Under the pieces are notes generated by a model, which saw only the letters and a program-made list of their open reading frames with translations, was not told where the DNA came from and searched no databases. The position numbers and the translations under genes are program-made. 64,000 nt of DNA from a virus, in the IMG/VR virus record IMGVR_UViG_3300029374_000315, positions 17,327 to 81,326 of that record. The stretch is one strand, 5' to 3'. How positions within the stretch are numbered: position 1 is the first letter of the stretch; each line of letters starts with the position of its first letter. Positions 10,759 through 43,259 of the stretch are shown piece by piece.

Positions 10759-10983
10759 ATGATGAAATATGGAAATATAACATGCAAACGATGTGGTGTC
10801 ACGTGGTATGGGCCAAAGTGTGGAAAGCTTTATTGCGATAATTGCAGAAAGATTGTGGATAGAGAAAAGGATATTAGATGTAAAAATAAAAAGAAACATA
10901 AGCCGACATTTATTGAAATTGCAAAAATGGCAGATGCAGAAGGACTGTCCTATGGAAAGTATTGTTTAAAATATGGAATCTAA
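10759..10983 (+). CDS. zinc-ribbon protein
   Basis: CKRCG...CDNC motif; ATG after GAGGTA. Confidence 0.45.
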   Translation: MMKYGNITCKRCGVTWYGPKCGKLYCDNCRKIVDREKDIRCKNKKKHKPTFIEIAKMADAEGLSYGKYCLKYGI

Positions 10984-10996
10984 AGGAGACGCAAAT

Positions 10997-11842
10997 ATGA
11001 ACGCAGTACCTGAAAAGAACGAAAATAACGCAGTTGAGTTTAATCCGCCAAAGGTTGATCCTGCTCCCAAAGTGAAACATAACCAGGCGAAGAACTATAA
11101 TATCAAACGCAAGGAAGCTTGTAATGGAACGGTGCAGCCTATTAAAGATGTAGAGGATATTAAACGAATTTCGGAATATTTTTGGAATCGTGGGATGTAC
11201 CGTGATTGGTGTTTGTTTAATGTTGGTGTATGTACTGGTTTTCGTGCAAGCGATTTGCTTCGTTTTAAGGTTTCAGATGTTACAACGCAGAGGGTAAATG
11301 GAAAGTTGCAAGTAAATGCAAATGCAAAAATACGAATGAAGGAAAAAAAGACTGGAAAATACCGTATTGTTTTTCTTCCAGAATCTGCTTTGGAAGTGAT
11401 TTCTACTTATATCAATAAAGTTAAGCTCCATTATGACGATTGGCTTTTCCCGTCATGTAAAGGCAGCTCTCGCAATTCACTGAGGAGCACAGGTGGGACA
11501 TCAATTAGTAAAAAGACTGGAATTATGTATACACACGAGGCAAATCCAAAGGTAGCCGGGGAGCCGCTTGATGTGGATAGTTTTGGACGAATTATGAAAA
11601 AGGTTCAAAAGGATATGGCTCTTCCATATAATCTTGGAACACATAGTTGCCGTAAGACATTCGGCTATCAGTTTATGGTACAGCACCGTGATGATGTTAT
11701 GGCTCTGGCCTGGCTTCAGCACGCTTTGAATCATAGTAGTCAGGCAATCACTCTTCATTATATTGGTCTTGATTCAGAAGTGGATGAGAGATATTACTCT
11801 GGAATCAATTATGGTGTGAATACTCATAGTGAGAATTCTTGA
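10997..11842 (+). CDS. tyrosine site-specific recombinase (phage integrase/Xer family, minimal, no arm-binding domain)
   Basis: Catalytic residues in order: R in TGFRASDLL, K-hairpin, HSCRKTF (HxxR), ...LHYIG tyrosine. Confidence 0.8.
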   Translation: MNAVPEKNENNAVEFNPPKVDPAPKVKHNQAKNYNIKRKEACNGTVQPIKDVEDIKRISEYFWNRGMYRDWCLFNVGVCTGFRASDLLRFKVSDVTTQRVNGKLQVNANAKIRMKEKKTGKYRIVFLPESALEVISTYINKVKLHYDDWLFPSCKGSSRNSLRSTGGTSISKKTGIMYTHEANPKVAGEPLDVDSFGRIMKKVQKDMALPYNLGTHSCRKTFGYQFMVQHRDDVMALAWLQHALNHSSQAITLHYIGLDSEVDERYYSGINYGVNTHSENS

Positions 11843-17038: not shown

Positions 17039-17374
17039 ATGATTTATACTGTAACAATGATTGACTCGTTTAAGGATGAGCAGAATGCGAAATTTAGCTC
17101 GCCGGTATCAAATACCAAAGGTATCTATTGGATGCCAGATGATAGTTGGATTGCTGGGTACTTCACGGATTTGAAAGAAGCTATCCAGTCTGTGATTGAT
17201 AATGTGGCTGATGTCTTTGAACACTGCTACAACTATGCAGTTATTGAAGGGTACGAAGAAGGATTCTATCCTGTGGCCGAGCTGACGAAGTGGTTTAAGT
17301 ATGATGCCAAGAGCGACAAGGCATTTGAGATTGAACCGCCGTTGCATAATAATGTGCGTGGATATGCGTTTTAA
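17039..17374 (+). CDS. hypothetical protein
   Basis: Internal ATG of ORF 16913, right after upstream stop. Confidence 0.45.
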   Translation: MIYTVTMIDSFKDEQNAKFSSPVSNTKGIYWMPDDSWIAGYFTDLKEAIQSVIDNVADVFEHCYNYAVIEGYEEGFYPVAELTKWFKYDAKSDKAFEIEPPLHNNVRGYAF

Positions 17375-17778: not shown

Positions 17779-18393
17779 TTGTTAACAAATCGTGAGCAAA
17801 GCGTTGCTATTGTGTGTATAATGTGCCTGCTGGCAGGGAATTTAGTAATAAAAGCGTTACCGAATACTGAAGTTGGAGGCACATATACATATTATAATGA
17901 TCAATCAGTTCATAATGTTACGCAGGCAACAAAAGAAGATGAGAACGATGAACCTACAATTTTTGTAAAGGAAATCGTTGAGACGAAGGTGGTGAACTTT
18001 AGCCAGGGTAAACATGAACTCACTGATGATGAGCGTGCTCTTGCAGAGCAGATTGTTGCTTGTGAAGCAGGTGCTGACAGTTTGGAAGGCCAGATGGCCG
18101 TTGCTCAATGTCTTTATGATTCCGCTGTACTTGATGGTCTAACCATCCAGCAGGTCTTTAAGAAGTATGGTTATAGTTCCTTATATAATAGGAAGGTTAC
18201 GGCAGAGAATGAGCTGGCTGTCTCTATGGTGTTTGACTATGGTGCTAAAATTTCAAACAAACCTATTCAATGGTTTGTAACCCCGACTGCAGCTCCCGGC
18301 AGTTGGCACGAGCGTGGAGCAACCTTTGCTGGACAATTTGGCGCACATAGGTTCTATTATGATTCGAAGTTGGTTGTGGATGATGCTGAGTGA
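17779..18393 (+). CDS. cell-wall hydrolase (SleB/CwlJ-like Hydrolase_2 domain) with N-terminal signal/anchor
   Basis: Hydrophobic N-terminus; C-terminal ERALAEQIVACEAG...QMAVAQCLYD...QFG..RFYY resembles SleB-type hydrolases; start codon (TTG) uncertain. Confidence 0.5.
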   Translation: MLTNREQSVAIVCIMCLLAGNLVIKALPNTEVGGTYTYYNDQSVHNVTQATKEDENDEPTIFVKEIVETKVVNFSQGKHELTDDERALAEQIVACEAGADSLEGQMAVAQCLYDSAVLDGLTIQQVFKKYGYSSLYNRKVTAENELAVSMVFDYGAKISNKPIQWFVTPTAAPGSWHERGATFAGQFGAHRFYYDSKLVVDDAE

Positions 18394-18447
18394 ATGGCAT
18401 CATCTAAAATTTTGATAAATAATACAACAAAAAGATGTGTAATATAT

Positions 18448-18476
18448 TGACTAAAACAAAAGGCTGTGTATAATAT
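18448..18476 (+). promoter_or_regulatory. sigma70-type promoter TTGACT-N17-TATAAT
   Basis: Exact hexamers with 17-bp spacer in a 90-bp intergenic gap before the gene at 18519. Confidence 0.6.
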
Positions 18477-18864: not shown

Positions 18865-18893
18865 TTGACTTCTGTAATTGTATCCTGTATAAT
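18865..18893 (+). promoter_or_regulatory. sigma70-type promoter TTGACT-N17-TATAAT overlapping a reverse-orientation copy of the conserved 20-bp motif
   Basis: Exact -35/-10 with 17-bp spacer; -10 lies inside GTATCCTGTATAATGTAGCT. Confidence 0.65.
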
Positions 18894-18936
18894 GTAGCTA
18901 TGGAACGGAGCTACATCATTGTAGAGGAGAATGACT

Positions 18937-19356
18937 ATGGATAACAATATTGACCCAAAGGTCGGAGAGGTTTGGTTGGTTGATCTATCCAATGCGACAG
19001 GTCATCAGCAGCGCGGCATTCGACCGTTCGTTGTGACAAGTAACAACAAGCGTAACCTCTTCAGCCCAACAATCAAGGGGAATCCGTTATCTTCAAGAAC
19101 GTATAAGCGTTCTCCGGTTCATGTTCTACTCTCAAAGGAAGACTGTGAGTTCCTAGAGGTTGATAGTATCGTTCTCTGCGAAGAGACTGATACACTTAAC
19201 AAAGGACAGTTCATCAAGAAACTTGGTGTCTTGTCGGAGTGTCAGATGAATATGATCGCAATGGCAAGATGCAAGGATGAACCGTTTTTGCTCGCAGCGT
19301 TCCTGAGTGGCGTACAACATACTATAGATTTTCAGAATTTTGCCGCATTTGCTTGA
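18937..19356 (+). CDS. PemK/MazF-family endoribonuclease toxin-like protein
   Basis: GEVWLVDLSNATGHQQRGIRPFVVTS...NLFSPT...VHVLL...LEVDSIVLCEETDTLNKG closely parallels Kid/PemK and EndoA; GAGGAGA RBS. Confidence 0.8.
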   Translation: MDNNIDPKVGEVWLVDLSNATGHQQRGIRPFVVTSNNKRNLFSPTIKGNPLSSRTYKRSPVHVLLSKEDCEFLEVDSIVLCEETDTLNKGQFIKKLGVLSECQMNMIAMARCKDEPFLLAAFLSGVQHTIDFQNFAAFA

Positions 19357-19407
19357 TTTGTTCTCAGGTTTAATGGTACACTACATAATAAGAAGGAGTG
19401 TGCCACT

Positions 19408-20334
19408 ATGCTTACTGAAGAAAAAATCAAAGCTTTTGCCGAAAAGTATTCTGATAGAAGCGGTGAGTTTGTTATATCGACACTGCGTCACGTTATGGAC
19501 TATGAGGCTGAACATGGGTATGAGTTGTTTGACTTTACAAAAGATGATTTTGTAAAGATGTTTGCTAAATACAATTGGGTGAACTCAAGTCGGTCGTTCA
19601 GAAATGTAAAGTCGATAATTACAGGGTACATCAAAAGTGAGGATCGAGCGAGCATGTATGACTTAGCTGAATTCTCGGAAAGCGATGTGAGTTCAGACAA
19701 TATGTACGAGGACAAGTATTTTGCGTCAGTTGATGAGTTTGTTGATTTCTTGGATAAGTATGAAGAACCATATCAGATTCGTATGAATGTGATTGCTGCG
19801 CTGTACTGGATTGGCCTTACTTCTGAAGAAGTTTCTAATCTGACGATTAACGATGTTGACTTTGAATCACGTACTGTTTTGAATAAGACCGGTGTTGACG
19901 CGAGATTGATGAATATCATCAAGCAGTGTTATGAAATGAAACAATACGATGCTCCAAATATGGGTGGATACAGAACGTTTTATGTCATAAATGGTGATTA
20001 CATCCTTCGCAAAACAGAGGATAGAACTGGTGCAGACAGTGATTCAAGAATGTCTACAAACACAATTCATAGTTATTTCACGCGCTTGAATGATATTCTC
20101 GAAAGAAGATATCATTCAAAGGCTTTAGATCGAAGACATCTGACCAGAAACGGCGAGTATGTCAAGGTTTATAACTACTGTAAAACTCATCCAGAATTTA
20201 ATCTTGCAGAACTTAGTTTCGGAAATGGTAAAGATCCTCTTGCGGACATTATCGGAAGAAAGTGCAGCAAGGTTGCCTACATTAGTTTCCGGCAAGGATA
20301 CAAGGGCTGGATCGAATACTTCCACAAAAATTAA
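19408..20334 (+). CDS. hypothetical protein, possibly a divergent/inactive tyrosine-recombinase-like fold
   Basis: LTINDVDFESRTVLNKTGVDARLMNII resembles the start of integrase catalytic domains; RHRY tetrad not recoverable. Confidence 0.3.
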   Translation: MLTEEKIKAFAEKYSDRSGEFVISTLRHVMDYEAEHGYELFDFTKDDFVKMFAKYNWVNSSRSFRNVKSIITGYIKSEDRASMYDLAEFSESDVSSDNMYEDKYFASVDEFVDFLDKYEEPYQIRMNVIAALYWIGLTSEEVSNLTINDVDFESRTVLNKTGVDARLMNIIKQCYEMKQYDAPNMGGYRTFYVINGDYILRKTEDRTGADSDSRMSTNTIHSYFTRLNDILERRYHSKALDRRHLTRNGEYVKVYNYCKTHPEFNLAELSFGNGKDPLADIIGRKCSKVAYISFRQGYKGWIEYFHKN

Positions 20335-20339
20335 AAACA

Positions 20340-20362
20340 GGGGGCTTCGGCCCCTTGATTTT
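20340..20362 (+). terminator. rho-independent terminator (GGGGC-TTCG-GCCCC + T-run)
   Basis: 5-6 bp GC stem, UUCG tetraloop, then TTGATTTT. Confidence 0.7.
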
Positions 20363-20422
20363 AACATTGTAACTATATAACACAGGATACATAAAATACT
20401 ATTTGAATGGAGAATGATAACA

Positions 20423-22492
20423 ATGTCTGATTTCAAGAAATTTCGTGCACTGCTGCAAGACCACTTCAATGAGATGGTGAAGGGCGAAAACCCTCTGTTT
20501 ATCACCGATGCAGACGAGGATGAACTGTACAATCTGTATCTCGACAGCTTCCCGGCTGGCACGAATGAGTTGTTCCGTAAACGGCGCGAGTATGACTGTT
20601 CCTGCTGCCGCCGTTTCGTGAAGAATATCGGCAAGCTAGTAGCGTTTGATGATGGAAAAATGATTACTGTGTGGGATTTTGATGCAAAGTCTGTCAAGTA
20701 TCAGCCTGTTGTGGACGCCCTGGATGCTTATGTGAAGAGCCGCACTATTGTGAATCCGTACTTTGTCAGTCGCAATATGATTGGTTCTGGCGATATGTTC
20801 GGCACCGAGATGAACTACGAGTACGATGAAAATCACAAGGATGTGCATACTTGGGACCATTTCGCAGTCAAGATTCCGCAGCGTTTCATTGTGCGGCCTG
20901 ATGACGTTGCTACCAAGATGGCTCAGTGGCGTGATTCCGCAAACGTATATAAGCGTTCTCTGGAAGAACTGACCATGGATGCTGTTGATACTGTTCTGGA
21001 GCTGATTGCACAGAATAGTCTGTATCGTGGTAAGGAATTTGAAAACGTCGTCAAGGTATTCAAGACTAACAAAATCGAATACGACAATACTCCGACTGAG
21101 AACAAGGCCGCATATGTTTGGTTGGCACCGGCGTGGAGCGATATAGGACAGCTTCGTATCCGTAACACCGCTATCGGTACTTTGCTGGTAAATCTGAGTG
21201 AGGGTATGAACGTGGATGCAGCCGTTACTGCTTTCGAGAAAGTTGTTGCTCCTGCAAACTATAAGCGTCCCAAGGCGATTTTTACCAAGAAGATGTTGGA
21301 AGATGCAAAGAAGACTGTCACCGAACTTGGCTATATGAGCAGTCTGGGTCGTCGGTTCGCCACTCTGGATGATGTTACTATCAACAACATCATGTTCTGC
21401 AACCGTGATGCTGCCCCTCGTGTGATGGGCGCTGTGAATCCGTTTGAGGCAATGGCTAAGACTGTTGCGATTGATCCGAAGAAGTTTGGCCGTGCAGAAG
21501 AAATCGGTATCGATAAATTCATCAGGGATGTTCTTCCGACTGCGACTGGCTTAGAACTGTTCATGGAGAATCGTTTTGAGAAGAATATGATGTCTTTGAT
21601 TGCACCGCAGGATAAGAGTGCGCCGAGCATGTTCAAGTGGCCTAATGGTTTCAGTTGGGCGTATACAGGTAATATGGCAGACAGCGATATTCGCGAAAAC
21701 GTTAAGGCTGCTGGCGGCAAGATGGATGGTGTGTTGCGTTTCTCGATCCAGTGGAACGATGTGTCGGGTGAATGGGATGAAAACGATGAGGATGCTCATT
21801 GCATTGAACCTGATAAGAATCATATCTATTATGGCGATAAGTGGAATCCTCGTACTGATGGCCGCCTAGATGTTGATATCCGTTGTCCTAATCAGGGGAA
21901 AGCTGCGGTCGAGAATATCACCTGGCCTGACATCAAAAAGATGAAGGAGGGCGAGTACAGCTTCTATGTAAACTGCTACGCTAATCGTGGTGGTAAAACT
22001 GGTTTCCGTGCTGAAATCGAATTTGATGGCAACATCTACTCGTTTAACTATGATAAGCCGCTGCATCAGGGTCAGAATGTCGCCGTGGCAAAAGTCACGC
22101 TGAAGGATGGCAAATTCTCTATCAAGGAGCTGCTGCCCAGTTCTACTAGCACCCGCGAGATCTGGGGTGTAAATTCCAATCAGTTCGTGCCTGTGTCTGT
22201 TGTGATGTACTCTCCGAACTACTGGGATGAACAGACTGGTAATGGCAACCGTCACTACTTCTTCATGCTCAAGGATTGTGTTAACCCTGAAAAGCCCAAT
22301 GGCTTCTACAATGAATTCCTGAAGGCGGAACTGTTACAGCATAAGCGAGTATTTGAGGCTCTTGGTTCTCAGATGGCAGTTCAGTCGGTAGATGACCAGC
22401 TGTCCGGCGTTGGGTTCTCTGAGACGAAACATGATTCCTTTGTTGTCAAGGTTCAGGGCGCTACTGAGCGGGTTCTGAAAGTTGTTATTTAA
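20423..22492 (+). CDS. large hypothetical protein (690 aa)
   Basis: Long uninterrupted ORF; preferred ATG 9 nt after GGAGA; no recognisable catalytic motif. Confidence 0.6.
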   Translation: MSDFKKFRALLQDHFNEMVKGENPLFITDADEDELYNLYLDSFPAGTNELFRKRREYDCSCCRRFVKNIGKLVAFDDGKMITVWDFDAKSVKYQPVVDALDAYVKSRTIVNPYFVSRNMIGSGDMFGTEMNYEYDENHKDVHTWDHFAVKIPQRFIVRPDDVATKMAQWRDSANVYKRSLEELTMDAVDTVLELIAQNSLYRGKEFENVVKVFKTNKIEYDNTPTENKAAYVWLAPAWSDIGQLRIRNTAIGTLLVNLSEGMNVDAAVTAFEKVVAPANYKRPKAIFTKKMLEDAKKTVTELGYMSSLGRRFATLDDVTINNIMFCNRDAAPRVMGAVNPFEAMAKTVAIDPKKFGRAEEIGIDKFIRDVLPTATGLELFMENRFEKNMMSLIAPQDKSAPSMFKWPNGFSWAYTGNMADSDIRENVKAAGGKMDGVLRFSIQWNDVSGEWDENDEDAHCIEPDKNHIYYGDKWNPRTDGRLDVDIRCPNQGKAAVENITWPDIKKMKEGEYSFYVNCYANRGGKTGFRAEIEFDGNIYSFNYDKPLHQGQNVAVAKVTLKDGKFSIKELLPSSTSTREIWGVNSNQFVPVSVVMYSPNYWDEQTGNGNRHYFFMLKDCVNPEKPNGFYNEFLKAELLQHKRVFEALGSQMAVQSVDDQLSGVGFSETKHDSFVVKVQGATERVLKVVI

Positions 22493-22506
22493 GAGGAGAA
22501 ATTATT

Positions 22507-22890
22507 ATGGAAAAGAATCTGTTTGAAATTGCAACCCGTAATCGCTATCGCTTCAACTATAAGGGTATTATGACTGTTGAAGATCTGTGGGATCTGAGTG
22601 TCGAGGCACTAGATGCGATTTTTAAGACCCTGAATCGTCAGAAGAAGACCGCAGACGAAGACTCCTTGCTGGCTGTTAAGAGTGCCGAAGATACCGAACT
22701 GGCAAACAAGATTGAGCTGGTCAAGTATATCGTGTCTGTCAAGCTGGCTGAATCTGAGGCTCGTGTGGATGCAGCCGAGAAGAAGGCGCAGCGCGATAAG
22801 ATTATGAAGATTGTGGCAAAGAAGAAGGACAAGGAGCTGGAAGATATGGACGTAGACCAGCTGATGAAGAAGCTGGAAGAGTTGAACTAA
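22507..22890 (+). CDS. hypothetical coiled-coil protein
   Basis: 127 aa, K/E-rich helical; GAGGAGAAA RBS. Confidence 0.5.
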   Translation: MEKNLFEIATRNRYRFNYKGIMTVEDLWDLSVEALDAIFKTLNRQKKTADEDSLLAVKSAEDTELANKIELVKYIVSVKLAESEARVDAAEKKAQRDKIMKIVAKKKDKELEDMDVDQLMKKLEELN

Positions 22891-23000
22891 AATAGACATT
22901 TTATCGTGATTTTCGTTAGAATAATTAACGAAGTATCGTGATGTTTCTTCCTCCAAAAATGCTCTGCGCAGGGCTGACAGCCGGGAAAGACCGGCAATAT

Positions 23001-23085
23001 GGGGATATGGTGAAATTGGCAGCCACGCTTGATTCAAACTCAAGTGTCGAAAGACGTATCGGTTCAAATCCGATTATCCCTACCA
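23001..23085 (+). tRNA. tRNA-Leu (anticodon CAA)
   Basis: Cloverleaf drawn by hand: acceptor GGGGATA/TATCCCT, anticodon stem CTTGA/TCAAG with loop TTCAAAC, long variable arm, T-loop TTCAAAT, CCA encoded. Confidence 0.8.
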
Positions 23086-23282
23086 TGAAGATCAGTTGTT
23101 CTAGCTAGATCGGGGATTGGCCGTTCATTGGCAAACGACAAGCATCACACCGGTAAATGATGCCGAGCCCAATAGGAAGGGGAATAAGGTGCAAGCCGAG
23201 TAGCTGTCGGACGAATACCCTTCAGGTAGCCAGTAAACCGGAATGTAAAACAAATGTTGGCTGTTTCTGATCTTCTATATAA

Positions 23283-23365
23283 GCTACCGTGGTGGAATGG
23301 CAGACACCGGAGACTTAAAATCTCCTGTCGGAAACGACGTGCCCGTTCAAGTCGGGTCGGTAGCA
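23283..23365 (+). tRNA. tRNA-Leu (anticodon TAA)
   Basis: Acceptor GCTACCG/CGGTAGC, anticodon stem GGAGA/TCTCC with loop CTTAAAA, long variable arm, T-loop TTCAAGT. Confidence 0.8.
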
Positions 23366-23372
23366 TTGATAT

Positions 23373-23448
23373 CCGGGTGTAGCTCAGTTGGAAGAGCGCG
23401 TGCTTTGGGAGCATGAGGCCGCAGGATCGTGACCTGTCACTCGGACCA
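23373..23448 (+). tRNA. tRNA-Pro (anticodon TGG), atypical T-loop
   Basis: Acceptor CCGGGTG/CACTCGG, D-arm GCTCAGTTGGAAGAGC, anticodon loop TTTGGGA, CCA encoded; T-loop reads ATCGTGA (non-canonical). Confidence 0.55.
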
Positions 23449-23536
23449 GCCCGAAAGGGCATGTAGAATTTTTCATTCACATTATTCCCAGCTCTCTGGA
23501 AACGGAGCAGTGTGACGTAGTAAGCTGGGTATATGA

Positions 23537-23607
23537 TGCGCCATCGCCAAGCGGTAAGGCAGAGGACTTTGACTCCTCCATCACAGGTTCAACCCCTGTT
23601 GGCGCAA
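23537..23607 (+). tRNA. tRNA-Gln (anticodon TTG)
   Basis: Acceptor TGCGCCA/TGGCGCA (U1:A72, as in bacterial tRNA-Gln), anticodon loop CTTTGAC, T-arm ACAGG-TTCAACC-CCTGT. Confidence 0.75.
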
Positions 23608-23612
23608 TTTAT

Positions 23613-23694
23613 GCGGATATGGTGGAATGGCAGACACGCCAGACTTAGGATCTGGTGCTTCGGCGTGTGGGTTCGATGCCCACTATCCGCACCA
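23613..23694 (+). tRNA. tRNA-Leu (anticodon TAG)
   Basis: Acceptor GCGGATA/TATCCGC, anticodon stem CCAGA/TCTGG with loop CTTAGGA, long variable arm, T-loop TTCGATG, CCA encoded. Confidence 0.8.
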
Positions 23695-23801
23695 CGATCA
23701 TAGAATGGTTGCGTACCGTTTTGTTGATCTCCTTTGACTGCCACTATTATTCCCAGCTCGCCAGTGATGGTGCAGTAGTGCTTTGTAAGCTGGGTGATTA
23801 T

Positions 23802-23876
23802 GCAGCGGTCGTACAATGGTTAGTATATCAGCCTTCCAAGCTGAGGATGAGGTTTCGACTACCTTTCGCTGCTCCA
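23802..23876 (+). tRNA. tRNA-Gly (anticodon TCC)
   Basis: Acceptor GCAGCGG/TCGCTGC, anticodon stem TCAGC/GCTGA with loop CTTCCAA, T-arm GAGGT-TTCGACT-ACCTT, CCA encoded. Confidence 0.7.
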
Positions 23877-24063
23877 ATCTCGTATGGGTAGGATTTTTAG
23901 CGGTCAAATCCGGCTGCGCCTGTGCGAGATACCACCCCGAAAGGGGCGAGATATAGGAAATGTGCATCACTGTTATTCCTTCCTCGTCTATATGATATAG
24001 ATGCAATAGTGTTTATAAGGAAGGTTCCCAGTTGAATAGTTGCAGCTGTTTGACTGGTAATAT

Positions 24064-24140
24064 GGGATAGTAGCTCAGTTGGTCAGAGCTGGCGGCTCAT
24101 AACCGCTTGGTCGCGAGTTCAAATCTTGCCTGTCCCACCA
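24064..24140 (+). tRNA. tRNA-Met/Ile2 (anticodon CAT), elongator-type
   Basis: Acceptor GGGATAG/CTGTCCC, D-arm GCTCAGTTGGTCAGAGC, anticodon loop CTCATAA, T-loop TTCAAAT, CCA encoded. Confidence 0.8.
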
Positions 24141-24282
24141 GCCCAATAGGGTATACATAAAATCTGCTAGAATTTTTGTTTTATAAGCGATGAAATAATA
24201 TGACGTTGATACGTCTATTATTTTTTTGCTCATTTTCGGAGATTTAGCTATGTAACACAGGATACTAAAAGGAGGTGGTTTG

Positions 24283-25822
24283 GTGAAACATTATGGAAGT
24301 ATTTGCGAGATTGATGGTTCTAAGATTGAGCCTGTCTCGTGTATCACTGGTGGTTCACCTTGTTAGCCAAGACCTTTCTATTGCCGGTAAGCGGGCAGGT
24401 TTGGCTGGAGAACGGTCTGGTCTATTTATGGAAATGATTCGTGTGATAAAGGAAATGAGGGATGCCACCAATGGAGAATGTCCAAAATTTGCAATCTGGG
24501 AAAATGTTAGAGGAGCACTTTCCTCAAACAACGGAGAAGACTTCCGATGCGTCTTGGAAGAATTTGCACACATCGTCGAAGCAGACGCTACAATTCCTAA
24601 ACCTTCGGGAAAAGGCGGAAAATGGTCTAAATCCGGCGCAATTTCCGGTAATGGATGGTCTTTGGCATGGAGACTCTTCGATGCTCAATATTGGGGAGTG
24701 CCCCAACGTCGTCAAAGAATCGCGCTTGTCATGGATTTTAGAGGACAACGTGCCGCAGAAATACTATTTGAGCGCACGGGCGTGCAATGGAATCCTGACG
24801 AGAGCATCCCGACGTGGCAAAGCTTTGCCAGAATTACTGAAGAATGCACTGCTAAAGATGATCGAGTGGTGGGAGAAAAAAGCTTTTGTATTGTCGGAAA
24901 CATGATTGACAGAGAAACCAACATGAACGGGACTGGTGTAAAAGAAGATACTGCTTTTACTATAAACACTATTGACCGTAATGCTGTTGCCTACACTTTA
25001 AAGATTCGTTCAGGATGCGAAGGTGGTGGCAAAGGCGCACTGGTACAGACCGAGAAGAGTGCAACGCTTTCTACATTGCAAGATCAAACGCTAATCTGCT
25101 TGGCAGACAACACCTCTTTACATAATTTAAAACAAAAGATTTGTGTCTTGAATGATCAGGGCGGTAGTGTAATGAATGTTTCTTACGATATTGTAGGAAC
25201 AATAAGAGCACAAGAGCATGGTCATCAACCAATTGTATTTGAGAGCCATAGTCAAGATGCTCGATACACCCAGCAAGGTAATACAAGTCCGGCTTGTACG
25301 GCTCAATGGGGAACTGGTGGCAATAATATGCCGCTTGTTGCCGAAAAGAAAGCCTTTGCAATGCAACGCATTGGTGAATACAAGGAAAGTGAACAAGCTA
25401 GTACGATGAAATCTCGTGACTACAAGGATGCTACTGACTTGATTGCAGAGAAGGAAACGAAGAATCTGCAATGGATTGTTCGTCGCCTGACTCCTGTTGA
25501 GTGTGAACGGTTACAGGGTTTTCCTGATGGATGGACCGATATTGGCGAGTGGTTTGATGAGAATGGTAAAAAGCACAAACCTGCCGATTCTCCTCGTTAC
25601 AAAGCACTCGGTAATTCAATCGCTTTGCCTCAGTGGTATTGGATTTTCCAGAAAATGAAACCGTATATCGGTGAAAATCCTACGCTTGGCAGTCTTTTCG
25701 ATGGAATTGGTGGCTTTCCGCTTGTCTTTGAAAGTATGTATGGTGATGGTACTGCTATCTGGGGATCAGAGATTGAACCGTTCTGCGTTGCAGTAACGAA
25801 GAAGCATTTCCCAGAAGACTAA
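24283..25822 (+). CDS. DNA (cytosine-5)-methyltransferase, circularly permuted; N-terminal catalytic segment in a different frame (frameshift/pseudogene or recoding)
   Basis: Frame A (GTG 24283) encodes ...EIDGSKIEPVSCITGGSPC then TAG at 24364. Frame B (24293..25822) continues QDLSIAGKRAG (motif IV), ENV (VI), QRRQR (VIII), RLTPVECERLQGFPDGW (IX), KALGNSIA (X), and at the C-terminus LFDGIGG (I) and SEIEPF...HFPED (II/III). Confidence 0.8.
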
Positions 25823-27820: not shown

Positions 27821-27891
27821 AAATTTTTTGCTTTTAACTAAGTAACACAGGATACCAATAAAAAAAAAGATTTAGAGAGGAATTTACATAT

Positions 27892-40755: not shown

Positions 40756-43086
40756 GTGGCAGATAAGAAATTTAATGAAAATATGATCCGTTGCTACATT
40801 AGGATAAAACGAGTCTTTTATCCGAAAGATGGGAGGGAGGTGGAGCCCGGCGGCTTCGCCACTTTCTCTGCCGAGGTGGTAAAAATCAAGCAGGGGAATC
40901 CTGTTATGAGTCGATACAGCGACCTCCGGCTAAAGGGCAACGTTCCTAGTCTCGATATGAATAAAACTTATTCGTTCTGTGGTGAGTATGTTCATCATGA
41001 AAAATTTGGCGATCAGTACAAAATCATCTATATGAATGAGTTTCAAGAGATCACTGACCCGGAAGAACAAAAAAGCTTTCTCCGTTTTATCTTGACTGAC
41101 CATCAGTTTGAGATGCTTTACGAAGCATTCGACAATCCGTATGAAATTATCAAGAATGGTGATATCAAGTCTCTTTGTACTGTTAGCGGTATTACGGAAG
41201 GTCGAGCACAAAAGATCATTGACTCTTTTGAAAACAACGTTGATAACAGTGAAGCGTACACAAAACTGGTTGAATACGGTTTGACCCCCAGTGCTATTGA
41301 AAAGCTTGTTCGTCAGTATCACGGTGCAGACACTCTGGTAAGAAAGATTGAGGAGAATCCTTACGTCCTGATCGATGATGCGTATGGCATTGGCTGGAAA
41401 AAAGCTGACACTCTTGCTTTGAATATGGGTTTAAAGCGCAATTCGCAATTCAGAATCGAAGCTTACGTCATGCATTTTCTTGCCGCCCGTGCCGAAGAAG
41501 GTAACTCTATTATCCCAGCAAACCAGACAATCAATAGCTGTATTAAGGAACTTGATTTGAACGAGGGTGACCAAGAAGTCATCAAAAGGGCATTTTTCCA
41601 TCTGCATGATGTTCGTGAAACGCTTTGGTGGAGTGATGACCGTCAGGAATTTGCTTTAACTAGAGTGTGGAATCTTGAAGATGAAATCGCAAAGGAAATC
41701 AAGCGACTGGCGGATGCACCTGTTAAACCGATTGGTCGAAACATGGATGTAGCAATCAATGAAGCTGAGGGTGCGCTTGGCATCGAGTATACTGAAGAGC
41801 AGAGAGATGCTATTAAAAAGGTATGTTCTAGCAACGTCTGTATCTTAACAGGCTACGGCGGAACTGGTAAAAGTACCGTTGTCGCTGGTGTTCTAAAGGT
41901 TCTTCGTGGTAAGTCTTTCGCTCAGACTGCACTCTCTGGTCGTGCCGCAGCTCGTATGCAGGAGATTACTGGTCAGGATGGTAAGACCATCCATCGTCTT
42001 CTTGGTTATGATATTGAGAATGGTGGTTTCATTCATAAGAAGGACAATCCTCTTGAAGAAGATATTATCATTCTGGATGAGACATCTATGGTTGGAGCTC
42101 AGTTGTTCTATGACTTGATTCAGGCAATCGAGACCGGAAAGCGATTCATCATGATTGGCGATGACGGCCAGCTTGAGAGTATCGGTATGTGTAACATTTT
42201 CAAGGATATGCTTGCATCTAAGGTTGTTCCTGTGGCTCGTTTGACTAAGATCCATCGTCAGGCGGCTAAGTCTGCAATTATCACGGAGAGCATCAAGGTT
42301 CGTAACGCTACACAATTGGTGCCTTATGGCTGGGCTGGTAGTGAGATTCGTGGTGAACTTCGTGATTTGGAGCTTGATATCTATAAAGACACAAGTGAAT
42401 CATTCAACCACATCATCAATCAGTACCGTACCTTATATAATAAGGTGGGGAATGATAGTGCGAAGATTCAGATTGTACTTCCACAGAAGCTGCGTGGTAG
42501 TATCTGTACTTATGAAGTCAATAATGCTATTCAGGAAATTGTGAATCCGAGTCGTGGTCAAGCAGAAGCAAAGGTCACAATCTATGGTGATGGCAAGGAT
42601 AGAGTGTATACTCTGCGTGAGGGCGATCAGGTCATCATTAACAAGAATAACTATGAGCTTCACACATACAATCTCAAGACAAAGAAAAAGGAAGAGAAAT
42701 GTCCGGTGTTCAATGGAAACCGTGGCATTATCCGAAAGATTGAGAGTAGTTTTATCCTGGTTGATTTTGACCAGTGGGGAACGATATTTATTCCTCATTA
42801 TTTTGGTGGGAATAACATCTGGGCAACACTTGAACTCGCTTATGCTTTGAGTTGCCATAAACTGCAGGGCAGCGAAGCTCCGTATGTGATTGTCGGTATG
42901 GACAACTCTGCATACCTGATGTTAACGAGAGAATGGCTCTATACGGCCATCACTCGTGCCAAGAAGTATTGTGTGATTTGCGCTGAAACCCATGCTCTTG
43001 ATCGAGCAGTAAAGACTTCGAGAGTACCGTACAAGCGGACGTTCTTGAAGGAATTTTTACGGAAAGAATTTTCAGAAAAGCGTTGA
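40756..43086 (+). CDS. RecD2-like superfamily-1 DNA helicase
   Basis: Walker A TGYGGTGKST, Walker B IIILDETSMV, HhH-like SGITEGRAQKII; 776 aa. Confidence 0.8.
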   Translation: MADKKFNENMIRCYIRIKRVFYPKDGREVEPGGFATFSAEVVKIKQGNPVMSRYSDLRLKGNVPSLDMNKTYSFCGEYVHHEKFGDQYKIIYMNEFQEITDPEEQKSFLRFILTDHQFEMLYEAFDNPYEIIKNGDIKSLCTVSGITEGRAQKIIDSFENNVDNSEAYTKLVEYGLTPSAIEKLVRQYHGADTLVRKIEENPYVLIDDAYGIGWKKADTLALNMGLKRNSQFRIEAYVMHFLAARAEEGNSIIPANQTINSCIKELDLNEGDQEVIKRAFFHLHDVRETLWWSDDRQEFALTRVWNLEDEIAKEIKRLADAPVKPIGRNMDVAINEAEGALGIEYTEEQRDAIKKVCSSNVCILTGYGGTGKSTVVAGVLKVLRGKSFAQTALSGRAAARMQEITGQDGKTIHRLLGYDIENGGFIHKKDNPLEEDIIILDETSMVGAQLFYDLIQAIETGKRFIMIGDDGQLESIGMCNIFKDMLASKVVPVARLTKIHRQAAKSAIITESIKVRNATQLVPYGWAGSEIRGELRDLELDIYKDTSESFNHIINQYRTLYNKVGNDSAKIQIVLPQKLRGSICTYEVNNAIQEIVNPSRGQAEAKVTIYGDGKDRVYTLREGDQVIINKNNYELHTYNLKTKKKEEKCPVFNGNRGIIRKIESSFILVDFDQWGTIFIPHYFGGNNIWATLELAYALSCHKLQGSEAPYVIVGMDNSAYLMLTREWLYTAITRAKKYCVICAETHALDRAVKTSRVPYKRTFLKEFLRKEFSEKR

Positions 43087-43111
43087 CAATTATGTGCGTA
43101 TCCTGTATAAT
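43083..43111 (+). promoter_or_regulatory. sigma70-type promoter TTGACA-N17-TATAAT overlapping a reverse-orientation motif copy
   Basis: Exact consensus hexamers; -35 overlaps the recD-like stop codon; -10 inside GTATCCTGTATAATATAGCT. Confidence 0.65.
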
Positions 43112-43180
43112 ATAGCTATAAAAAGTCTCCATCCCGGAGGCTTAAAATTCTCTCTTTAGCTATATAATACAGGATACGAG

Positions 43181-43220
43181 AAAGAAATGGCTTGCTCGTA
43201 ATGACAAGCCTTTCTTTATT
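43181..43220 (+). terminator. hairpin/terminator-like structure (AAAGAAATGGCTTG-loop-CAAGCCTTTCTTT)
   Basis: 13-bp interrupted stem with 10-nt loop followed by ATT; lies between motif copies F4 and F5. Confidence 0.4.
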
Positions 43221-43259
43221 GGCTTTAACTATATAACACAGGATGCTCAAGGAGGTTTT

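Follow-up and report, generated by a model that had tools for sequence, protein, structure and literature searches.

We describe here a two-gene segment, at positions 18865-20390 of a 64,000-nucleotide (nt) stretch of viral DNA (IMG/VR record IMGVR_UViG_3300029374_000315, positions 17,327 to 81,326; hereafter the window, in whose numbering all coordinates are given), that encodes a MazF-like protein followed by a 308-amino-acid (aa) protein with an integrase-like fold. This segment is probably an autoregulated mazF-repressor operon, together with its operators, in an uncultured SPbeta-like gut phage. An earlier annotation of the same DNA, hereafter the original prediction, had listed a consensus promoter, a PemK/MazF-like toxin gene, a recombinase-like gene without a clear catalytic tetrad and a strong GC-stem terminator between two inverted copies of a motif, and had proposed that together they form an inserted moron or a mobile or invertible cassette. 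The listed features are all present, where they had been placed or within a few bases, and, with a promoter and a terminator to itself, the segment forms a self-contained transcription unit. However, it is a fixed two-gene operon, not a cassette that jumps or flips.

The segment opens with a sigma-A/sigma-70-type promoter that matches the consensus at 11 of 12 positions and is kept in 26 distinct sequence variants from relatives, and closes with an intrinsic terminator, a hairpin followed by a run of U residues, that is likewise conserved among relatives. Such a strong host-type promoter would yield a bicistronic mRNA ending at the strong terminator. The likely start of the first gene is the ATG at 18937, located 7 nt past a GAGGAG ribosome-binding site (RBS); it gives the 139-aa product of the relatives' gene calls, the open reading frame (ORF) measuring 139 or 141 aa depending on the choice of start. 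This product matches the Pfam PemK_toxin profile (E = 5.4e-19, 68.9 bits against a cutoff of 23.1) and PHROG 1936, 'MazF-like growth inhibitor' (E = 3.6e-21), and aligns to the S. aureus and B. subtilis MazF structures with E values from 1.7e-13 to 7e-10, in agreement with a predicted role as a MazF-family endoribonuclease. The catalytic Arg is kept (R29), and the alignment to S. aureus MazF places Ser52 at the position of the catalytic Thr, a conservative change. In B. subtilis MazF, the catalytic residues are R25 and T48, and the T48A variant is inactive (PMC10769878). Residues ~108-139 are a C-terminal extension, ~30 aa long and conserved among the phage MazF proteins (consensus IAMARCQDEPFLLxAFLSGVQNTxxFQxFAAYA), which is absent from canonical MazF (~116 aa). 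Homologues with at least 60% identity were found only on metagenome contigs, of up to ~130 kilobases (kb). The best match to this MazF in a cultured phage, Psychrobacillus phage Perkons (37% identity), was rejected as a cultured counterpart, the nearby 328-aa ORF not being MrpR-like. Counts of UACAU and ACA within the operon were uninformative on MazF self-avoidance or targeting.

The second gene encodes the predicted repressor. The 308-aa protein has no Pfam Phage_integrase match at E <= 0.1, which is how the profile search suggested by the original prediction turned out. On its own, it matches Pfam MrpR_N_CB at E = 4.9e-4 (21.1 bits, below the gathering score of 27) and a PHROG named 'integrase' at E = 4.4e-11. 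Its homologues are found on hundreds of metagenome contigs, and the close ones fall into 77 clusters with 74-93% identity, all 308 aa long and carried by contigs of typically 130-150 kb. An exhaustive profile search retrieved 72 remote relatives of about 320-345 aa. MrpR_N_CB is matched by 35 of the 45 aligned family members, with a best E value of 1.9e-17, weak MrpR_C_cat matches are recorded on relatives in precomputed annotation, and alignment of the family profile to SPbeta YopR/MrpR with hhalign gave a probability of 98.2% (E = 6.5e-14, 264 columns). An AlphaFold2 model computed on a deeper alignment reached a predicted local distance difference test (pLDDT) score of 89 (an earlier model from a shallow alignment, pLDDT 62, was discarded). 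The protein displays a two-domain, CB plus CAT, integrase-like fold whose nearest solved structures are SroF and MrpR: the top seven Foldseek matches in the Protein Data Bank (PDB) comprise phi3T SroF-DNA (E = 1e-8, template modelling score 0.63), SroF-Sar, YopR and MrpR, and the recombinases Cre, lambda Int, XerA and Tn1549 Int trail the top by about four to five orders of magnitude, Cre and lambda Int at ~1e-3. By sequence alone, phmmer and hmmsearch against PDB sequences returned only a marginal Tn1549 Int match and did not detect MrpR, and a tblastn search of cultured phages gave no significant match.

The residues expected of a recombinase are missing from this fold. In the alignment to Tn1549 Int, the first catalytic Arg (Arg-I) is replaced by Thr138 (GLTSEE against the motif GLRxSE), and across the 45-sequence family no Arg or His column reaches 70% identity and no HxxR motif is conserved. 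The invariant or near-invariant residues are instead F43, L132, W134, G136, Y298 and W301, Y298 being strictly invariant. On its profile matches, its modelled fold and these substitutions, the 308-aa protein belongs with the non-catalytic SroF/MrpR repressor family, not with active recombinases. Publicly, its homologues are named 'integrase', 'tyrosine recombinase' or 'hypothetical protein'; by our results, those named as recombinases are misannotated SroF/MrpR-type repressors. A few of the contigs carrying the gene measure 240-784 kb and are either prophage-bearing chromosomes or assembly concatemers.

The motif copies that flank the segment proved to be part of a larger set. Boxes 1 and 2 are indeed inverted relative to one another and identical at 17 of 21 positions, but they are not specific to the segment: they belong to a degenerate 21-nt box, consensus GTATCCTGTRTWAYNTAGYTA, of which the window contains seven copies against 0.02 expected by chance. 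A weight-matrix scan returned exactly these seven sites, with scores of 28.6-34 and none between these and the shuffled-sequence maximum of 19. All seven boxes are intergenic, and the box is asymmetric, inspection of its sequence revealing no internal dyad symmetry. Two placements are observed. The two plus-strand copies (18880 and 43098) lie in near-perfect or perfect TTGACx-17-TATAAT promoters, the box covering the spacer, the -10 hexamer and the expected start. The five minus-strand copies, which read TAGCTATATAAYACAGGATAC on the plus strand, sit past terminator-like hairpins and 2-37 nt before a RBS or start codon. The genes downstream of these five copies, all on the plus strand, are the 692-aa ORF next to the operon, a C5-methylase, an AAA_24/Sak4-like gene and DNA ligase.

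This arrangement resembles that of the SPbeta repressor. MrpR retains the Tyr within a tyrosine-recombinase fold whose key Arg and His residues are substituted, and it shows no recombination activity (PMC10516654). MrpR/SroF binds a repeated element, SPBRE, at ten SPbeta promoter regions, one of which serves its own operon, yopMNOPQR (PMC10516654), and SroF (PDB 8a0a, 8bpz and 9rd5 for the SroF/MrpR structures) binds as a monomer, contacting 24 of the 26 base pairs (bp) of an asymmetric box (bioRxiv 10.1101/2025.11.27.690993). We located SPBRE copies (AAWAATATGTATATAA) upstream of SPbeta yonP, yonT, yonX, yopV and yorE; they overlap the promoter spacer and -10 hexamer or sit between promoter and RBS, the same two placements as the boxes of the window. 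Both phages have copies of a long asymmetric box between genes and close to promoters, one of them at the operon's own promoter, and in both the repressor gene, yopR or the 308-aa gene, is the last of its operon with a terminator directly after it. The proteins share the CB plus CAT fold, the loss of the catalytic Arg and His and the retention of the C-terminal Tyr. The systems differ in that the box sequences are unrelated (GTATCCTGTRTWAYNTAGYTA here, AAWAATATGTATATAA in SPbeta and a 26-bp box in phi3T), in that two genes, mazF and the repressor gene, replace the six-gene sroA-F (yopM-R) operon that lies beside aimR-aimP-aimX in the Bacillus phages, and in the host, here an uncultured gut bacterium.

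By this analogy, the box is most likely the binding site of the 308-aa repressor, which would recognise the 21-bp GTATCCTGTRTWAYNTAGYTA as a monomer and in either orientation. Lying across the -10 hexamer, the spacer before it and the expected start, box 1 would give autorepression of the operon's promoter. Box 2 sits just past the operon terminator, ahead of the next gene. Of the other five boxes, those not found at a further consensus promoter directly precede early and replication genes, and repressor bound to the five would shut off these units by promoter occlusion or by a roadblock to transcription. The coordinates of the boxes and of the other features are collected in Table 1.

Table 1. 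Features of the operon, the seven 21-nt boxes and neighbouring elements in the window.
Feature	Position	Strand	Remarks
Canonical tyrosine recombinase, 289 aa	10973-11842		Pfam Phage_integrase E 3.7e-16; Xer-like NCBIfam matches
orf108, 108 aa	18519-18845	+	function unassigned; own promoter TTGACT-16-TATAAT at 18447-18474
Operon promoter, sigma-A/sigma-70-type, TTGACT-17-TATAAT	18865-18893	+	-35 at 18865-18870, -10 at 18888-18893
Box 1, GTATCCTGTATAATGTAGCTA, predicted operator	18880-18900	+	overlaps spacer, -10 hexamer and expected transcription start
mazF-like gene, 139 aa	18937-19356	+	PemK_toxin match
308-aa gene, SroF/MrpR(YopR)-type integrase fold	19408-20334	+	predicted catalytically inactive DNA-binding repressor
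Intrinsic terminator, hairpin core GGGGGCUUCGGCCCC, U-run tail UUGAUUUU	20332-20363	+	free energy (dG) -17.5 kcal/mol, z-score -4.5
Box 2, plus-strand reading TAACTATATAACACAGGATAC	20370-20390	-	outer edge is the end of homology among relatives
tRNA cluster, seven genes (three Leu, plus Pro, Gln, Gly, Met)	23001-24140		between variable slot and box 3
Box 3	24245-24265	-	past tRNA cluster, 28 nt upstream of C5-methylase ORF; equivalent in most relatives
Box 4	27835-27855	-	between YorF-like and AAA_24/Sak4-like genes; in the relative L004 the equivalent box follows the YorF gene
Box 5	43098-43118	+	within perfect TTGACA-17-TATAAT promoter 43083-43111; architecture as box 1
Box 6	43157-43177	-	inside short structured transcript from the 43083 promoter
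Box 7	43226-43246	-	ahead of ligase ribosome-binding site

Boxes 5 to 7 cluster between a RecD-like helicase gene and the DNA ligase gene (43083-43259). There, the box-5 promoter would drive a structured transcript of ~100 nt (dG -30.6 kcal/mol, z-score -4.2) that holds box 6, ends in a terminator-like hairpin (43181-43217) and has no Rfam match. It may be a leader or a small RNA, controlled in the same way.

If the segment were mobile or invertible, as the original prediction proposed, the inverted boxes would be recombination sites at which the enclosed protein excises or flips the 1.5-kb segment, an idea to which the inverted flanking boxes, identical at 17 of 21 positions, the tyrosine-recombinase fold of the enclosed protein and the loss of homology among relatives right at the outer edge of box 2 all lend some appeal. 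We compared the locus in 80 IMG/VR relatives, selected on the upstream 204-aa gene (hyd204) as an anchor (77-100% identical), and in six metagenome contigs; 79 of the 80 relatives are informative, the contig of the remaining one ending before the region. The order hyd204-orf108-mazF-308-aa gene, on one strand, is found in 79 of 79 informative relatives and in the six contigs. The box upstream of mazF and the opposite box past the 308-aa gene are present in 78 of these relatives as well as in the six contigs, and in the 79th, which does have the first box, the contig ends within the 308-aa gene, ahead of the second. All of them sharing one order and one orientation, neither an empty site nor an inverted copy of the operon exists among these loci, and the comparison of presence and absence that had been put forward as the test of a cassette revealed no polymorphism. 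The same result speaks against a moron: the segment does carry its own promoter and terminator, but it is present in every relative that covers the region, not sporadically.

The boxes themselves are poor candidates for recombination sites. Five of the seven are direct repeats over 23 kb that span essential replication genes, and recombination between them would therefore be destructive. They lack internal dyad symmetry, and the boxes that flank the corresponding operon in two diverged lineages, L095 and L098, are direct instead of inverted repeats. The enclosed protein, with Thr at Arg-I, no conserved His or Arg in its family and no Phage_integrase match, has as its closest solved structures repressors that do not recombine DNA, MrpR showing no recombination activity (PMC10516654). 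The locus thus differs from Cre, lambda Int, XerA and the FimB/Hin-type switches in its missing catalytic residues, in the absence of dyads from its repeats and in their number, seven, and from invertible switches in the uniform orientation across 79 relatives; moreover, the window has a genuine Phage_integrase gene elsewhere (10973-11842). Taken together, these results make a mobile or invertible cassette very improbable.

The slot that adjoins box 2 (20391-24244) is hypervariable among relatives that are otherwise collinear, the diverged lineages L095 and L096 included. In the window and in 21 of the 79 relatives, it holds the 692-aa ORF (PHROG 1735, function unassigned) and a 127-aa ORF. 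Elsewhere, it is occupied by a 736-754-aa Pnkp/ligase-like gene (AAA_33 + Metallophos + RNA_lig_T4_1), and in the rest by an RNA_ligase and AAA_33 gene pair, an HNH gene, other genes or no called gene. Since MazF cleavage leaves 2',3'-cyclic phosphate and 5'-OH ends, the position of RNA healing-and-sealing genes directly past mazF is suggestive. A search of INPHARED for close DNA relatives matched only MT835544 (L001), a distant relative that shares just the 692-aa and 127-aa genes and has neither the operon nor the box. In that genome (5149-7705 and 10076-10931), these two genes are surrounded by an array of paralogues, nine or more, that encode products of about 90-107 aa ending in C-x-C-x-SLL, and by a 273-aa tyrosine-recombinase-like gene.

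A true inversion polymorphism does exist 4 kb downstream of the operon, at 24174-25138. There, a block of ~970 bp is flipped in 4 of ~80 relatives (L017, L031, L054 and L075), with 75% nucleotide identity against 83-92% in its flanks. Box 3, the RBS and, at the 5' end of the C5-methylase ORF (509 aa), ~280 codons lie within the block, whose ends coincide with an inverted repeat of 10 nt without mismatch, TTTTGTTTTA at 24174-24183 and TAAAACAAAA at 25128-25137. In the flipped genomes, the N-terminal half of the methylase is a separate minus-strand gene.

The operon was further traced in six diverged lineages, three reached via the repressor (L091, L093 and L095) and three via MazF (L096, L098 and L099). 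In all six, a PemK gene (138-149 aa) lies directly upstream of an MrpR-like gene (319-348 aa), an ORF of about 100-127 aa precedes the pair, and SPbeta-type replication genes follow. The MazF proteins, including the C-terminal extension, are 58-68% identical to that of the window, the repressors 25-29%. Three lineages have a different box of their own at the PemK promoter and just past the repressor terminator: TARGCACACRAACAC in L095 and TTGKCTAACAAAAT in L098, each in three direct copies, and ATTTGTTATTATATAT in L096, in two inverted copies of which the upstream one overlaps the -10 hexamer of a TTGACT-17-TATTAT promoter. In L091, we found a tandem 22-nt repeat past the repressor gene. Because the boxes vary with the repressor and not with MazF, and because the flanking copies may be direct or inverted, this pattern fits a repressor and its operators, not the terminal inverted repeats of a mobile element.

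The pairing of a toxin gene with a gene for a predicted DNA-binding protein in one autoregulatable operon, strictly conserved across lineages, raises the question of whether the locus is primarily a toxin-antitoxin or addiction module, or one of abortive infection or exclusion. The integrase-fold protein would then be the MazF antitoxin and an autorepressor, in a toxin-first operon, and not a genome-wide repressor. The locus does resemble type II mazEF/pemIK systems in its PemK/MazF toxin with the catalytic Arg kept, predicted to be co-transcribed with a DNA-binding protein from a promoter with a likely operator. No MazE/PemI-type antitoxin, whether of the AbrB or the ribbon-helix-helix type, was recognisable among the neighbouring ORFs in Pfam, PHROGs and NCBIfam searches, a result that speaks for such a module. 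By contrast with those systems, the toxin gene comes first, and it is paired with the gene for a 308-aa protein of integrase fold that has predicted sites along at least 25 kb of the phage genome, the five boxes far from the operon pointing to a wider regulon. The divergence of the pair, 58-68% identity for MazF against 25-29% for the putative antitoxin, is also atypical of co-evolving partners. We consider a primarily toxin-antitoxin role rather improbable, even if it overlaps in part with the repressor operon that we favour.

Another potential partner is encoded by orf108, which from lineage to lineage keeps its place just ahead of the mazF promoter. The upstream ORF is homologous to orf108 in four of the six diverged lineages (22-28% identity), the matches in L098 and L099 not being significant, and a four-sequence alignment displays invariant Cys, Asp, Gln and Tyr positions. 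The orf108 product has no match in Pfam, PHROGs, NCBIfam or PDB; it is a speculative candidate for a MazF partner or antidote. A terminator-like hairpin (18377-18406) precedes the orf108 promoter. The original prediction had placed a lysis-like hydrolase gene immediately beside the segment; this neighbour is in fact orf108, the 204-aa ORF lying two genes upstream of mazF with a Hydrolase_2 match that is not significant (E = 0.077).

The closest known link between a MazF-family RNase and a phage repressor is that of phi3T and SPbeta. In phi3T, lysogeny is favoured by the RNase activity of host MazF, which the phage tunes through AimX, YosL and phi3T_93/YopM (PMC10769878); SPbeta YopM, a product of the repressor operon, binds MazE (PMC10516654). 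Here, MazF is tied to the repressor module by its place in the operon. Those circuits rely on the MazF of the host, whereas here the phage itself carries mazF, which directly precedes the repressor gene within one operon and specifies the ~30-aa extension; counterparts of phi3T AimX and YosL or of host MazE were not identified here. The second protein of the operon, with a tyrosine-recombinase fold stripped of its catalytic residues, is remotely homologous to SroF/MrpR (YopR), which acts as master repressor in the Bacillus phages SPbeta and phi3T. MazF and repressor would be made from a strong early promoter, after which both would be held down through box 1. MazF, co-expressed with the repressor, could damp translation and thereby favour the repressed (lysogenic or quiescent) state, as host MazF does in phi3T.

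The remainder of the window is in agreement with such a relationship. Its genes, essentially all on the plus strand, include those for Pol III alpha, RecJ-like, RecD-like, DNA ligase, NrdD, ThyX and YorF-like proteins and seven tRNAs, the latter being the only features returned by an Rfam scan of the window; in relatives, YorF, YorH, AAA_24 and DnaB genes adjoin the operon. The IMG/VR contigs of the relatives measure 130-139 kb, against 134 kb for SPbeta. In gene set and genome size, this is an SPbeta-like, uncultured human-gut phage of roughly 135 kb, which we infer to be temperate. The product of the canonical tyrosine recombinase gene, 8 kb upstream of the operon and distinct from the 308-aa repressor, is a candidate integrase or resolvase.

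Several observations weigh against an autoregulated repressor operon of the SPbeta type. The 308-aa protein is only 12-18% identical to SroF/MrpR, and the assignment of the box to it is inferred from analogy, position and co-variation in a few lineages; no clear shared box emerged in L091, L093 or L099 (12-mers, at most one mismatch). A MazE/PemI-type antitoxin is missing, as reported above. Arbitrium genes were not seen near the operon (no aimR/aimP, no Sar), the operon flanks containing no AimR-like or sroA-E-like genes, and a search for LexA boxes gave two matches, both intragenic and at chance level, without enrichment. As to the temperate lifestyle, a scan of 185,579 GTDB species-representative genomes with the 308-aa protein detected no copy. 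Lastly, no -35 element is recognisable upstream of the five minus-strand boxes, which might be promoter elements for a phage factor instead of operators or roadblocks.

This last point can be extended to the whole set of boxes, which would then be phage-specific promoters or the sites of another regulator (for instance an activator, or a sigma factor or YonO-type RNA polymerase of the phage) and not operators of the 308-aa protein, their overlap with sigma-A promoters serving to shut off early promoters by occlusion. Consistent with this, the five minus-strand boxes contain a -10-like TATAAY hexamer and lie past terminators and 2-37 nt ahead of the RBS or start of plus-strand genes, and in the four relatives with the flipped block the box is inverted together with the gene that it precedes. 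However, the occurrence of the box in both orientations, two against five, is unusual for a promoter and expected for the asymmetric site of a monomeric repressor, the box changes in sequence with the repressor lineage when MazF and the replication genes stay similar, and the operon of the SroF-like protein is always bracketed by boxes. We regard a promoter or foreign-regulator role as unlikely, though worth keeping in mind, and retain the operators of the 308-aa repressor as the preferred interpretation of the boxes.

More tentatively, it is possible that the MazF step of the lysis-lysogeny circuit of SPbeta and phi3T has been taken over into the genomes of these SPbeta-like gut phages, a phage MazF with its family-specific C-terminal extension and a fast-evolving integrase-fold repressor, transcribed together, making up a minimal, self-contained decision and immunity module. 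The repressor or orf108 may double as the MazF antidote, in a new kind of toxin-antitoxin-like pair, and during lytic growth the products of the Pnkp or RNA ligase genes that recur past the operon would repair what MazF has cut.

Our analysis also carries a caution: when a recombinase-like gene lies between inverted repeats, the catalytic residues and the relatives should be checked before the locus is called an invertible switch. SroF/MrpR repressors have so far been characterised only in Bacillus SPbeta-like phages, and are here extended to abundant uncultured phages of the human gut, with a predicted operator sequence that is directly testable. The coupling of a phage-borne MazF to a repressor is the reverse of the Bacillus case, in which the phage manipulates the MazF of its host, and would offer a simpler system to study how MazF steers lysis-lysogeny decisions.

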